A stretch of 64,000 nucleotides of DNA from Eledone cirrhosa (Eukaryota). Location of the stretch: positions 180,668,001 to 180,732,000 of the forward strand of contig OZ024740.1 in NCBI GenBank assembly GCA_964016885.1, in the 5' to 3' direction. The notes below the pieces were generated by a model. The model was not told the DNA's origin, did no database searches, and saw nothing but the letters and a program-made list of their open reading frames with translations. A program made the translations under genes and the position numbers. The first letter of the stretch is position 1. Every line of letters begins with the position of its first letter. Positions 1,891 to 59,351 of this stretch are shown piece after piece.

Positions 1891-2598
1891 TATTATGAAG
1901 AGAGAAGGAACATTTAGATATAATTAGTAATAAAATGTATCATACCTAAACTGCTCCTAGATTCCTCGACTACGTAGTTTCGTGGCATAAACAAAAACAG
2001 TACATCATAAAGATATAGAGCCTTTGCGAGGTCTGCCGACTTATCAAGAGGATACCTCATTTTATAGCTTCAATAACGCGTCTACACGACGTGAGAAAGA
2101 ATCCCAAAAGTCGGAGGGGGAGATAGTCACGCGATATAACGGTCGAGAAACAGAGCTAAGCCTCTTATAACCCCGAAGAAAATACCACGGAGGCGGAGGG
2201 GGTATTTATATCGAAGCCGTAGAAGAGGTGGTAAAGGAGGCGAGAAGTATGAGTAATGGAAGCTTTCCAGCAGTCACTACACTTCAAAGATTACTCGACC
2301 AGAGGGAGTTATGAACAATATATTTAGAAACACACAGATACATGCGGACACACACATATACATGAATACATCCACACCCAACCGTGAGTCAGTGGTGCCA
2401 ACCTTACCGATGTTGCTCAATGAATGACTGGGACAGACCAATCCGGTTGAACCAGACTGAACCAGTATGAGAGTTAAAAATACATTATGAAGAGAGAAGG
2501 AACATTTAGATATAATTAGGTTGGCACCACTGACTCACGGTTGGGTGTGGATGCATTCATGTATATGTGTGTGTCCGCATGTATCTGCGTGTTTCTCA
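1891..2598 (-). mobile_element. Non-coding HHR element: ~590 bp monomer with terminal redundancy and an inverted segment
   Basis: ATTATGAAGAGAGAAGGAACATTTAGATATAATTAG occurs at ~1892 and ~2484. 2519-2598 is the reverse complement of ~2325-2404. Flanked by (TA)n and contains a HHR. Confidence 0.75.
1963..2052 (-). ncRNA. Type I hammerhead ribozyme, U3-A8 core variant
   Basis: Minus strand: TCCTC-TTGATAA-gtcggca...tgccac-GAAA-CTACGTAG-TC-GAGGA. Stem I is 5 bp, stem III is palindromic, triplet GUC. Confidence 0.75.
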
Positions 2599-3198
2599 AT
2601 ATATATATATATATATAAATATATATATATATATATATATATATATATATATATATATATATATATATATATATATACACACATACACACACGTATATAT
2701 ATATGGGCCTTCCATTTTCATTTCACATTATATACATGTCTGAGTATATTTTAATTATTTTTAAGTGAACATGAAATTAAAAAAAATATTTTAGAGGGAT
2801 AGTGACATAAGACATCCTCTTCATGTTAATCGTCTATGAAATCAAAAATGACTGCAAAGTTTATAGCCGACTGCTCTTGTAGAATTAAAGAAAACTACCC
2901 TTTTCTCACAGAAATGTAGCCCCAACTCACTTGCGTATATGTCAGAGATAACACAAATGAACACTCACAATTCTGAAGTTCGGGAAATATACGTTCGTAT
3001 GGTGGAAAACCCTCTTAAACAACGTTTTCCCACTCATCTCAGATCTTTCAGAGATCCTAATATGAAAGACAGCATAGCCCTGGCATAACAAACTTGGTAC
3101 TTGTAAGACAAAATGCGTCCGAGATAAGATTACTTGAATATACTACAATGATCCTGTCAGTACAGCAATGGTAACAAGAGAGGCAGTCCCTCACTTAC

Positions 3199-3284
3199 TG
3201 AGAAATTTAGAATATTACAAGCTTTGTCATCTTCGGACAATACGTATTTGAACTCAAACCAACTGCTTGCTAAGTGGATATATT
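3199..3284 (-). CDS. Possible host exon of unknown gene
   Basis: Minus strand ttgtAG|...|GTAAGT with open frame (E)YIHLASSWFEFKYVLSEDDKACNILNFS, phase-compatible with 3763-3834. No recognisable homology. Confidence 0.15.
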
Positions 3285-3762
3285 CTACAAATTTGACTTA
3301 TTTTCAATCATCATATTTCAATTATTTTTCTTTCCACACTTACATAACACAACATTCTATACTACTTTACTACTTACCGTAATACATATTACCTTCTTTC
3401 TATTGCATTCCACCACATAATGCAATCCTTCTGATATAGAATTCGAACACTCACACGTGAAAGATCTCTTATTTCGTATTTAAATCTTGTAGTAATTTCC
3501 CTTTCACCTGATACACTTTTTAATAAATGACCCTCTTTAGCTCGCATTACTTTTATCGGTGTCCTATAAACTCGTATAAGCGCCTGGTGATAGTTCACAA
3601 TTATTTCTGCCTCTTATATTCTGGGGATGTGGTCAAACCTGGGGTGGCGCAACTGAACATAAATAAGTAATAGAATATTTATATTCTCTTCGCGATTGAC
3701 GAAACTAAACTCCAAGACGGAAATCATTAGACTTTGTTTGCATCAGAATTCCCGTCGCTTAC

Positions 3763-3834
3763 CGAAGCCCACATCACCAGGTGCCCCCACGCTGGACCTG
3801 CTATATTCTCCATGGTATTCTATCTTGTCACCTT
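3763..3834 (-). CDS. Possible 72-nt host exon of unknown gene
   Basis: Minus strand tgtAG|...|GTAAGC. Only one frame is open, (E)GDKIEYHGEYSRSSVGAPGDVGF. GC-richer than its flanks. Confidence 0.2.
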
Positions 3835-56423: not shown

Positions 56424-56481
56424 ATACTATGATCATTTCAATGTCCGAGTTCCATATGAATCCGGTGATATCATCAGGTAT
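56424..56481 (-). ncRNA. Hammerhead (1.88-kb family, copy 2)
   Basis: ATAC-CTGATGA...GAAA-TGATCA-TA-GTAT on the minus strand. Confidence 0.8.
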
Positions 56482-58313
56482 TGGAATATAACAAAAGAAT
56501 ATGTAAAAAACCATGGGTCCGAAAAATCAGAGACATAGACAAAGAGGACAACTGACCAATAGCCGCCCTTATATCGGCCAGTCGCCCTCAAAGTGGTAGC
56601 AACTGAATCTACTAATGAACATCTGGTGAGGGGGCGAAGGCTTATAATGCACTACCACCTCTCCGTCAAAGAAAAAGGGGAAGAAAGAAAGACAGGGAGA
56701 AAGAAGTCAGCGTAATTGTCACACTACATTCATGCTAGAAAATACCGCGAAAAAATGCTACTCCAAAGAATCTATAATGGGTGTCTGTATGGTATAATGT
56801 GTGTACCGAAGATTGGAACTTTCAACTTATGTTGCGAGTTATAGGATGAAATTAAATTAAATTAAAAATATTTAATTGCAAAATGATAAATTGAAAAATA
56901 AATTATTAGAAAATTAAAGATTAAGGTAGCGAGATTTATTTAATGAACTTACGGAGAGAGTCTTATATGAACAAATTTATCTCGATAAGATATTAGGAGG
57001 GGATATAGAGTAAAGATTTCGATTGCGAGTCCCAGCCAGCACCCTCTCCCCACCATGAGTCAGCCAGTCTCGAGTGGTATCGTCAGCCAAAGAAATGGAA
57101 ATTCATTTTTCCGAGTACTCTAGGAACGTAGCTACATTAGGCTCCGGGGGCGGTAATGGGAACTCCACAATTTCGACAGGCCATCGTCTATACCAAACGA
57201 ATATTATTATATCACACATGAGGGGTTTATTTACGTGCCATTAGAGGCATGATTCAGCTAATAGTTATGCCTAAATCTGGAGTTTATAGGTATAAGTAAT
57301 ATGGCGGCCAAAACAGGCGGTGCGGTGGGACCGGCGCAAAGAAAGTCGCTCCGAGTAATTTCATTTTCCGAAAGAGGAGAAATTTATTTTTCCGAGCACT
57401 CAAGGGAGGTTCAACTTTCCGAGTGACAGCCGGGAAAACCCACCACACAAATCTAAGGTAGCAACCGAATGAAAAGTGCAAATATACCAAAATTATTTTA
57501 AAGTCCCAGTTAGTCCGGGTTATAAGTAGTGTTGTTCTTAGGTGGGTAGGGTCTATGAAAGGTGCATAATGACATGAGTAAGGATGTTACAAAAAAATAA
57601 TAAAAGCAGGATACAAAGATCAAATACAGATATTAAGATAGAATACATTGATAAAAATACATTAATAAAATAATTAAGAAAAATATATATATTAATGAAA
57701 TAATGAAAAAAATTAATAAGGGTAAATAAGAATCAATATAGATCAAGTTGTAGTACGATAATACAGGTTGTACATATAGATATAGAGGATGGAGGGGATG
57801 GAATGGTAACAGGTTGTACCTAGTGTAAAGTTCGGGTCTCCGAATTCAGTGTGAGTCACAAAAGTCCTGAGGTATAGAGTAGAGAATTCAGTCAATGCAA
57901 TACATGTTTTAGTATAATACGTAGAGATTTGTCGGAATCGGAATCATACCGACAAGGAAGTAGTGTCATGTGGCGGTAGATAATGCACAGAGTAGCCAAA
58001 ATCCGAATGGTAAGTAGATCAGTTAATCCCATGCTAGCAATAGGTGTACACTGAAGTCAGTGCCGCTGTTCAATATTACATTTTAAAGTGCTCGACATGT
58101 TTGGAGCATTATTTCTTTAGGTTTGTTGCTTCACCACTGGATCGAACTGGTCATTCCGTATGGTCAATCCTAGTGTAATATTGTTAAGAGTACTCAAAGC
58201 AGTGCAGTTCACCCATCCTCGTTTGTGTAGTTGGTGGTGCTAATACGGAGTTAATTATAAATAAAATAAAATAACAGGAGGTTGGACAGGTGTAAATCCT
58301 TGAAAGGTTTATT

Positions 58314-58371
58314 ATACTATGATCATTTCAATGACCGGGTTCCATATGAATCCGGTGATATCATCAGGTAT
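58314..58371 (-). ncRNA. Hammerhead (1.88-kb family, copy 3)
   Basis: Same as 59294-59351 in reverse complement. Confidence 0.85.
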
Positions 58372-59293
58372 TGGAATATAATAAAGGAATATGTACAAAA
58401 ACATGGGTCCGAAAAATCAGAGACAGAGACAAGAGGACGACTGAACAACTAGCCGCCCTCAAAGTGGTGGCAACTGAATCTACTAATGAACATCTGGTGA
58501 GGGGCGAAGGCTTATAATGCACTACCACATCTCCGTCAAAGAAAAAGGGGAAGAAAGAAAGACGGAGAAACAAGTCAGCGTAAGGGTCACTCTACATTCA
58601 TGCTAGAAAATGCCGCGAAAAAATGCTACTCCAAGAATCTATAATGGGTGTCTGTATGGTATAATGTGTCAACCGAAGATTGGAACGTTCAACTTATGTT
58701 GCGAATTATAGGATGAAATTAAATTAAATTAAAAATATTAAATTTCAAAATGATAAATTGAAAAATAAATTATTAGAAAATTAAAGGTTAAGGTAGCGAG
58801 ATTTATTTAATGAACTTACGGAGAGAGTCTTATATGAAAAAAATTATCTACATAAGATATTAGGATGGGATATAGAGTAAAGATTTTAATTTATCATTTT
58901 GCAATTTAATATTTTTAATTTAATTTAATTTCATCCTATAACTCGCAACATAAGTTTAACGTTCCAATCTTCGGTTCACACATTAGACCATACAGACCCC
59001 TATTATAGATTCTTTGGGGTAGCATTTTTTCGCGGCATTTTGTAGCATGAATGTAGTGTGACCCTTACGCTGACTTCTTTCCCCCTATCTTTCTTCCCCT
59101 TTTTCTTTGACGGAGAGGTGGTAGTGCATTATAAGCCTTCGCCCCCTCGCCAGATGTTCATTAGTAGATTCAGTTGCCACCACTTTGAGGGCAACTGGCC
59201 GAGATAAGGGCGGCTATTGGTCAGTCGTCCTCTTTGTCTCTTTCTCTGATTTTTCGGACCCATGGTTTTTTACTTATCCTTTTTTATATTCCA

Positions 59294-59351
59294 ATACCTG
59301 ATGATATCACCGGATTCATATGGAACCCGGTCATTGAAATGATCATAGTAT
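59294..59351 (+). ncRNA. Hammerhead (1.88-kb family, inverted arm)
   Basis: ATAC-CTGATGA-tATcACCGG...CCGGTcATt-GAAA-TGATCA-TA-GTAT. Stem III is the palindrome ATGATCAT, triplet AUA. Confidence 0.85.

Follow-up and report, generated by a model that had tools for sequence, protein, structure and literature searches.

The palindromes in a 64,000-nt window of the Eledone cirrhosa genome (OZ024740.1 of assembly GCA_964016885.1, positions 180,668,001-180,732,000, forward strand) belong to stem III of type I hammerheads, which are carried by Penelope-like elements (PLEs) and by non-LTR retrozymes. They likely allow a copy and its neighbour to pair as a double hammerhead, and it is self-complementarity, rather than a family-specific sequence, that appears to be kept. 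A code of family identity is improbable, because unrelated families carry an identical palindrome. The dimer mechanism of palindromic hammerheads is already published; what is traced here, by sequence comparison, is compensatory change at pairs that would form only in the dimer, between subfamilies of one genome. Repeat-type dimeric hammerheads were reportedly treated by Lünse et al. in 2017, a work that may already cover covariation. No proposal of the palindrome as a code was found in the literature, judged largely by titles.

The initial annotation had listed nine self-complementary segments. All nine strings are present in the window directly after GAA, and eight of them form a palindromic stem III in type I hammerheads, each with core, stem II and UH in a descriptor scan (Table 1). 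The ninth, near 189, lacks a core, and the list had missed the hammerheads at 8201, 51774 and 18975/19110. For the ACATGT near 189 the best core is CTAAGGA, with G5 changed; no descriptor match lies there, and elsewhere in the genome just one place matches (78% over 74 nt), with ACATAG and likewise no core. Two first-pass descriptor matches, 34799(-) and 61040(-), failed the full descriptor. An Rfam scan of the window gave no hammerhead family among 137 matches (E<=1) and none at gathering score; nearly all the matches are microRNA models on AT microsatellites.

Table 1. Hammerheads and host elements in the window (positions from the first letter of the window).
Feature	Position	Strand	Stem III segment	Remark
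Hammerhead, TTGATAA (U3-A8) core	1963-2052	-	ACTACGTAGT 1969-1978	Single window copy; relatives in L042
Type I hammerhead (8201)	8196-8263	+	ACCTCTGGT, 3 bp + non-palindromic triloop	Absent from earlier list
422-bp repeat hammerhead, tandem copy	17102-17142	-	ACTAGT 17108-17113	Tandem repeat 16848-17774
422-bp repeat hammerhead, tandem copy	17524-17564	-	ACTAGT 17530-17535	Descriptor
422-bp repeat hammerhead, inverted end-copy	18005-18045	+	ACTAGT 18034-18039	Repeat comparison
318-bp repeat hammerhead, TTGATAA core	18365-18411	+	ACAAGGCCTTGT 18394-18405	
318-bp repeat hammerhead, second tandem copy	18683-18729	+	ACAAGGCCTTGT 18712-18723	
Inverted hammerhead pair, CTGATAA core	18916-19169	cores 18975(-), 19110(+)	ATGCGCAT, palindrome	Absent from earlier list
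PLE	19916-26385	+		1863-bp direct repeats 20325-22184 / 24527-26385; inverted copy 19916-20328
pLTR hammerhead, CCGAAGA core	21928-21976	+	ACAATTGT 21963-21970	
pLTR hammerhead, second copy	26129-26177	+	ACAATTGT 26164-26171	
530-bp repeat hammerhead	27253-27334	-	ACTAATTAGT 27259-27268	Descriptor
PLE 3' end, truncated, with inverted copy	29155-31711	both		GIY-YIG ORF
PLE hammerhead	29279-29317	-	AGTACT 29285-29290	
PLE hammerhead	31549-31587	+	AGTACT 31576-31581	
485-bp repeat hammerhead	31814-31897	-	ACCGATTCGGT 31820-31830	Monomer 4 bp + triloop
485-bp repeat hammerhead, tandem copy	32299-32382	-	ACCGATTCGGT 32305-32315	
Hammerhead (51774)	51769-51812	+	AGAAAT	Family's usual segment is the non-palindromic AGAACT; absent from earlier list
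Three tandem 1.88-kb units	54546-58372	-		Repeat comparison
1.88-kb unit hammerhead (54600 copy)	54546-54605	-	reads ATAATCAT	
1.88-kb unit hammerhead	56423-56482	-	ATGATCAT 56429-56436	
1.88-kb unit hammerhead	58313-58372	-	ATGATCAT 58319-58326	
1.88-kb family hammerhead, inverted end-copy	59293-59352	+	ATGATCAT 59339-59346	

In most window hammerheads stem I extends for 3-8 bp from the core, and only the 21933 and 27329 copies have a single contiguous pair. The latter belongs to the 530-bp family, whose relatives have an intact stem I; of its tandem neighbours, one has no core and the other an altered core and palindrome. The 8201 family was met in 7 contexts of the genome sample described below, and relatives of the 18975/19110 hammerheads with intact core are found in L118 and L197. 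The AGTACT hammerheads of the 29-kb PLE lie on opposite strands only. The PLE at 19.9 kb had been annotated as palindromic, which holds for the copies at 21.9 and 26.1 kb, whereas the copy at 19.9 kb reads ACAATTTT. Among 100 listed copies of its family, read over core and stem II, 99 carry the CCGAAGA (U4C) core.

Partial tandem pLTRs, an inverted truncated copy and a hammerhead within the pLTR are all present in the window, and the layout of tandem pLTR and inverted truncated copy is the one described for PLEs in part of bioRxiv 2021.04.23.441226. The 20-kb PLE contains broken RT-like ORFs at 22188-24657, as judged by eye and tblastn. The ORFs at 22-24 kb include a YRDD stretch and share 42% identity with the 5276-6325 ORF; a Pfam search of them gave no RT match. 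The RVT_1 match at 47674-48429 is weak and below the cut-off (Pfam, E 0.0012), and the GIY-YIG ORF at 29707-30516(-) matches PF01541 with an E of 1.6e-6. In the window, non-coding tandem repeats whose successive units each contain a type I hammerhead measure 422, 318 and 485 bp, and retrozyme-like arrays occur elsewhere in the genome, e.g. 31 units of 466 bp. PF26215 (HTH_animal) is found on 27-70% of cluster members (Atlas), with low recognition, and is a lead only. Counts of same-strand partners within 1.5 kb are uninformative for PLEs, since the partner sits further off.

The excess of palindromy over chance was assessed in a genome sample of 120 evenly spaced 10-kb pieces (1.2 Mb), with stem III left free and segments of at least 6 nt. 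Perfect even palindromes make up 62 of the 135 segments of the sample, whereas the Markov-shuffled controls gave none among 24. A Watson-Crick pair occupies the innermost position in 21 of the 22 families with even segments of 6-12 nt (binomial P about 2e-10, for p=0.3 and families taken as independent). The AGAACT and ACCTCTGGT families are exceptions to the palindromic stem III. A PLE family of 25,082 copies reads AGAACT, AGGACT or AGAGCT, with a Watson-Crick centre in 0 of the 100 rows listed; in a set of 551 copies, ATGTTCAT occupies 96 of 100 rows, none is restored to a palindrome and the set has spread with its centre broken. A perfect palindrome is therefore not required, because both were amplified with a non-palindromic centre.

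From one subfamily to another, palindromy is preserved through compensatory substitutions, which fall at pairs that a single hairpin would be too tight to form. Among 100 listed copies of the 318-bp lineage, hand counts gave 29 with ACAGAGCTCTGT, 25 with ACAAGGCCTTGT and 2 with ACAGGGCCCTGT, with G-U intermediates in 6 and 4. In the 22 distinct aligned rows, AU and GC each account for 10 at the pair that closes just 2 nt. The covariation score of this lineage was reached by 0 of 500 shuffles, with related rows and thus a few events behind it. In the 485-bp lineage the central pair is complementary in 53 of 55 listed 10-mers and occurs in three kinds (AT 42, CG 7, TA 4; hand counts). Its centres follow the subfamilies on a tree free of stem III, with 6 changes, the minimum; the tree kept 29 of the initial 48 rows, 19 being dropped as truncated copies with non-homologous flanks. 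Stem II also contains compensatory changes. Compensatory change at pairs that are impossible within one hairpin supports the published double-hammerhead model.

The segments could instead be ordinary monomer hairpins, with palindromic centres produced by DNA slippage or template switching and not by dimer pairing. Folding allows hairpins of 3-4 bp in segments of at least 9 nt, but those of 6- and 8-nt segments are unfavourable, at a predicted +2.4 to +6.0 kcal/mol. Slippage is suggested by the resemblance of ATATATAT to abundant microsatellites and by the steps between 8 and 10 nt in the 485-bp lineage; however, decaying copies are left unrepaired, being perfect again in 3 of 100 listed variants of the 422 family (hand count) and, for the 1.88-kb family, in none of 100, and compensated forms are seen only as whole amplified subfamilies. 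Even with the monomer cleavage of invertebrate retrozymes, short stems III included, that is reported in a portion of PMC7229834, this explanation is quite improbable.

In constrained folding of six natural tandem pairs, five prefer the double hammerhead by 13.4-16.0 kcal/mol, and for the 485-mer the gain from dimerisation is 1.5 kcal/mol only. The unconstrained fold beats the double hammerhead in all six tandem pairs, by 0.9-16 kcal/mol. Dimeric cleavage through the palindromes, as initially suggested, fits the covariation, the constrained energies and the published model, but the restriction to tandem transcripts was overstated. The small gain of the 485-mer, the long hairpin stems III of 5 of the 33 sampled families and the monomer cleavage reported for invertebrate retrozymes speak against it, and families with hairpin stems III of 3-4 bp or longer probably cleave as monomers as well. 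In vitro cleavage was reported in one of nine retrozyme dimers (bioRxiv preprint 10.64898/2026.07.22.740005).

Low in vitro activity is also reported for PLE hammerheads (PMC4209133), and Naiad PLEs, according to part of bioRxiv 2021.04.23.441226, multiply without hammerheads. Together with the family-wide U4C core of one PLE, this would suit ribozymes that are mostly inactive relics or protein-assisted, with a palindrome whose RNA-RNA pairing serves some further step, for instance template jumping by the RT, instead of cleavage. Such a role is extremely unlikely: families with thousands of copies conserve the core and UH jointly with stems I and II, and stem II has compensatory changes. The comparisons point to selection on the double-hammerhead fold of copies that replicate, despite the low reported in vitro activity.

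In the double hammerhead, the stem III segment of copy a in a tandem transcript would pair with that of copy b. Stem I would also be swapped, with the 5' strand of a joined to the 3' strand of b, and each core would cut the UH site of the partner copy. Multimers would be converted into unit-length RNA, and a monomer or circle with one ribozyme would be spared. Compensatory steps would let the palindrome drift as other helices do, and family specificity would arise as a side effect of cis proximity combined with the joint divergence of stems I and III.

A self-recognition code would mean that selection has made the palindromes diverge, restricting the cleavage of every family or subfamily to its own members, as in a retroviral dimerisation palindrome; this is very unlikely. 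All segments differ in the window, as had been observed, but random palindromes of those lengths would do so with P=0.92, and the difference is therefore uninformative. Identical palindrome pairs number 4 among 17 palindromic families, where 1.5 are expected. ATATATAT is found in three families, and ACGATTGT and ACAATTGT in two each, without alignable flanks. ACCACTGGT is likewise common to more than one family and so is no family's own, while for AGTACT with a short stem II one family accounts for all 100 matches listed. ACTAGT is retained in two lineages that are 65-70% alike, despite changed stems I and II (43 and 57 of 100 rows). Across 15 clusters, the additional recurrent haplotypes number 8 for stem III, 15 for stem I and 19 for stem II, in a sampling biased both ways; stem III thus diversifies no faster than the other two helices, with the 485-bp lineage as an exception. 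None of the 45 window family pairs is predicted to have 3 or more contiguous pairs in each of the two swapped stems I, and a stable stem III duplex is predicted to be missing in 41; by this prediction stem I alone separates all 45. The large PLE family without Watson-Crick centre also opposes a code. The claim that distinct palindromes make families orthogonal is not supported, since palindromes are shared and diversify no faster than stems I and II, and the swap of stem I would already keep the families apart.

The sibling subfamilies are closer to such a code. Those of the 318-bp lineage have a common stem I and different palindromes, with a predicted heteroduplex of -6.5 kcal/mol against homoduplexes of -19.5 and -20.1 kcal/mol. 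The 485-bp lineage has five centres in five subfamilies, three of those with identical stem I, but its sibling heteroduplexes (-7.5 to -12.8) are predicted to be more stable than the homoduplexes of 6-nt families (-4.8). A common stem I with different palindromes in the siblings of two lineages leaves a small opening for kin discrimination. That these siblings were driven to switch palindrome, each processing its own multimers alone or pairing in trans with its own kind alone, is unlikely; if true, kin discrimination among selfish RNAs would be encoded in the ribozyme dimer interface.

The preferred reading, pairing of neighbouring copies into a double hammerhead, is mostly ordinary because the mechanism is already published. 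Its value is the comparative evidence, namely subfamily-level compensatory changes and G-U intermediates at pairs impossible in one hairpin. The genome also offers natural specificity reagents: the 422- and 466-bp lineages combine one palindrome with different stems I, and the 318- and 485-bp subfamilies one stem I with different palindromes.

A double hammerhead of newt and ASBVd is said to have been described by Forster in 1988. In the dimer model, as given in parts of PMC4209133 and PMC6765202, cleavage is permitted in multimers and avoided in monomeric circles. The PLE pLTR hammerheads of Cervera & de la Peña 2014 (PMC4209133, in part) are alike in type I topology, short palindromic helix III, the U3-A8 variant, many variable families per genome and opposite-strand pairs 100-700 bp apart; the Eledone helix III segments differ in measuring 6-12 nt or longer. 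Unlike the minimal PLE type, with G10.1-C11.1 and a bulge after A9, the stem II base in Eledone is often a mismatch (about 13 of 33 families, by eye), although G10.1-C11.1 is present in some, e.g. 51774. Non-LTR retrozymes, as described by Cervera & de la Peña 2020 (PMC7229834), share the non-coding tandem repeats (318-530 bp in Eledone) with one type I hammerhead per unit; they co-exist with PLEs and are proposed to be pLTR-derived (PMC7229834; Li et al., bioRxiv 10.64898/2026.07.22.740005, both in part). The 1.88-kb unit is longer than the retrozymes of 51-972 bp published so far, the Eledone repeats are known here from DNA alone, and an inverted end copy in the manner of PLEs accompanies the 422-bp and 1.88-kb arrays. 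The repeat-type dimeric hammerheads of Perreault et al. 2011 (PMC3088659, in part) are dimer-capable, with a palindromic stem/loop III in several ribozymes, and the legend of Fig. S8 does not claim family specificity. In HIV-1 DIS and the oskar dimerisation loops (PMC7357161, in part) a short palindrome also drives an RNA homodimer, but joins separate molecules in trans and serves their packaging or transport, whereas pairing of the Eledone hammerheads is likely in cis in a tandem transcript, within a catalytic fold that swaps stem I.

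The nine strings proposed in the initial annotation as palindromic stem III segments (A15.1 to U16.1) all follow a GAA in the window. Motifs were placed with a type I hammerhead descriptor, in which stem III was left free, and by direct inspection, which together assign eight of the nine segments to hammerheads. ACATGT near 189 was rejected, as its best core is CTAAGGA; its sole other genomic match (78% over 74 nt) reads ACATAG and lacks the core. The palindrome attributed to the Penelope-like element (PLE) copy at 19.9 kb is present in the 21.9 and 26.1-kb copies, but the 19.9-kb copy reads ACAATTTT. 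Three families (8201, 51774 and 18975/19110) had been overlooked. The Rfam scan of the window found no hammerhead. Within the window, the 422, 318, 485, 1.88-kb and 20-kb families have same-strand tandem partners with cores. The motifs at 2047, 8201 and 51774 occur singly, those at 19 kb and 29 kb form inverted pairs, and only one motif of the 530-bp array is complete. A U3-A8 core variant is usual in several families, and a U4C core occurs in 99 of 100 20-kb PLE copies among the matches listed.

Abundance in the 3.0-Gb host genome is given as whole-genome exact-pattern counts, each with a control count (table). Strict hammerhead matches number 140 in 1.2 Mb versus about 9 in shuffles (e.g. 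loci L031-L050, L081-L140, L203-L242), a density that would correspond to roughly 300,000 motifs across the genome.

The tandemly repeated 318-530-bp units, each carrying one hammerhead, are non-LTR retrozymes as described in the accessible portions of PMC7229834 and bioRxiv 2026.07.22.740005. Tandem retrozyme arrays terminate in an inverted partial copy, as PLE insertions characteristically do, consistent with their mobilisation by PLE proteins. The 29-kb element contains a GIY-YIG ORF and an inverted copy. The 20-26-kb element has direct repeats of 1863 bp, an inverted copy of 413 bp and broken ORFs that share 42% identity with a second element (4.8-7.0 kb) and contain a YRDD stretch that we take to be an RT motif; a Pfam search of these ORFs gave no RT match. 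Two further PLE-like RT ORF sets are broken, and their terminal repeats (pLTRs) may be the source of the hammerheads at 8201 and 51774. On the minus strand, three RT-encoding copies related to one another are likely LINE-type and unconnected with the palindromes.

Features of the window and genome-wide counts of the families
Feature	Window position	Detail	Genome matches	Control
Decayed 29-kb PLE end copy	384-1081	79% identity; degenerate hammerhead near 836-870
Broken PLE-like RT ORF sets	4809-6973; 46484-48429
8201 hammerhead	8201	ACCTCTGGT; triloop, non-palindromic
18975/19110 hammerhead	18975/19110	ATGCGCAT
51774 hammerhead	51774	AGAAAT
Retrozyme arrays with inverted partial end copy	16848-18256; 54404-59491	also listed C1 arrays
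Minus-strand RT copies	35463-37959; 41577-43811; 49246-51683
RVT_1 matches (minus-strand RT copies)	36891-37955; 43080-43811
Zinc knuckle	39352-40128	weak match
U3-A8 core variant	2047; 18370; 18688	TTGANAA; also L047, L228
U4C core	21933; 26134; 19.99 kb	CCGAAGA
Stem II base-pair mismatch	17530-17560; 21933-21963; 27268-27329; 29290-29312; 58326-58367
AGAACT-bearing PLE family	51769-51812	also L273-L302	25,082	29
ACTAGT			41,530	162
AGTACT family			7,323	10
1.88-kb family			5,676	0
20-kb PLE family			4,325	0
485-bp lineage			4,320	61
318-bp lineage			921	16

Palindromy exceeds chance. Of the 135 segments of at least 6 nt in 120 evenly spaced 10-kb genome pieces, 62 form perfect even palindromes; none of the 24 segments from shuffles does. 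When 351 contexts were clustered with stem III masked, 33 families were retained (one or two entries being probably noise or misregistered): 17 Watson-Crick palindromes, four G-U palindromes, five odd-length segments with all flanking pairs, five long hairpins and two with an unpaired centre. The innermost pair, which cannot form within a hairpin, is Watson-Crick in 21 of the 22 even families of 6-12 nt.

Two families speak against a strict palindrome. The 25,082-copy family, with RT and GIY-YIG sequence at its loci, reads AGAACT (78), AGGACT (18), AGAGCT (3) or AAAGCT (1) in 100 rows among the matches listed. Its purine-purine centres (AA, GA, AG) are flanked by a G-C pair, and its dimer would carry tandem A-A, G-A or A-G mismatches. 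AGAACT is common to two clusters differing in stems I and II. In the 1.88-kb family, ATGTTCAT occupies 11 of 100 rows among the matches listed; among those listed for the 551 copies with an altered centre it occupies 96 of 100, and ATGTACAT none. A stem II variant has the same count as the ATGTTCAT copies, which are therefore likely an amplified subfamily.

The palindromes are supported as the interface of a double hammerhead, in which two copies pair their stems III. Predicted energies are +2.4 to +6.0 kcal/mol for isolated 6-8-nt hairpins and -4.8 to -10.5 for palindromic homoduplexes. Constrained folding of six natural tandem pairs favours the dimer over two monomers by at least 13.4 kcal/mol in five (422, 13.8; 318, 14.3; 1.88 kb, 13.4; loci L173, 13.9, and L199, 16.0) and by just 1.5 in the 485-mer; the unconstrained fold lies below the double hammerhead in all six, by 0.9-16 kcal/mol. 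From its topology, a type I double hammerhead would exchange stem I besides stem III. The dimer reading is already published: the available text of Cervera & de la Peña 2014 states the palindromic loop, the dimer and multimer-versus-circle regulation, with activity not found for a single minimal motif and low for dimers. The Fig. S8 legend of Perreault 2011 notes that several ribozymes have a palindromic stem and loop III, and the part seen of a 2019 review restates the point, citing Lünse 2017.

Substitutions preserve palindromy between subfamilies but not in decaying copies. By hand count of 100 copies among the matches listed, the 318-bp lineage reads ACAGAGCTCTGT (29), ACAAGGCCTTGT (25) and ACAGGGCCCTGT (2), with wobble intermediates ACAGGGCTCTGT (6) and ACAGGGCCTTGT (4). 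In its alignment (24 of 30 loci and one window copy, giving 22 distinct rows) the pair that encloses only 2 nt is AU in 10, GC in 10, GU in one and unpaired in one. One pair of stem II is compensated as well, and stem III thus resembles the other helices in its behaviour. In the 485-bp lineage, by hand count among the matches listed, the centre is complementary in 53 of 55 10-mers (AT 42, CG 7, TA 4), beside 35 rows of 11-mers and 10 of 8-mers. On a stem-III-free tree of 29 rows (19 truncated, divergent or core-failing rows dropped) its variants track subfamilies, requiring 6 changes, which equals the minimum of 6, against a mean of 17.9 in shuffles. Of 100 variants of the 422 family altered at position 2, taken from the matches listed, 58 read ATTAGT and three are again perfect palindromes (hand count).

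The initial annotation further read the palindromes as a possible self-recognition code, each family cleaving only with itself. The eight do all differ, but eight random palindromes of those lengths would differ with P=0.92. Sharing also speaks against a code: ACTAGT is common to two lineages, which account for 57 and 43 of the 100 rows among the matches listed, differ in stems I and II and are 65-70% similar across 120-250 nt; ATATATAT is common to three families, and ACGATTGT and ACAATTGT each to two, with no alignable flanks; ACCACTGGT is common to two related families. The 17 palindromic families contain 4 identical pairs versus 1.5 expected, in part through shared descent. Across 15 clusters, three sampled so as to enrich stem III variants, stem III has 8 extra recurrent haplotypes, stem I has 15 and stem II has 19 (8, 12 and 18, respectively, without three clusters sampled with the palindrome fixed). 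Siblings of the 318 and 485-bp lineages, chosen for being variable, would fit a code in sharing stem I with different palindromes: predicted duplexes are -6.5 for 318A x 318B versus about -20 for homoduplexes, and -7.5 to -12.8 versus -14.1 to -19.9 for the 485-bp siblings. These modelled energies are a preference, not orthogonality. Both swapped stems I are predicted to form in 0 of 45 window family pairs, and a favourable stem III duplex in 4 of 45. The window families are thus likely non-cross-reactive, and stem I by itself would separate all 45 pairs. Keeping families apart would not require the palindrome, nor is the palindrome unique in this role, and a code is improbable.

The window elements are thus supported as real and of known kind. 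The 20-26-kb element has in common with published PLEs the tandem-plus-inverted arrangement described in the accessible part of bioRxiv 2021.04.23.441226. PLE hammerheads are reported with a highly conserved G-C at 10.1-11.1, whereas here this base-of-stem-II pair is mismatched (U-U, A-G, C-A, A-A) in about 13 of the 33 families, judged by eye.
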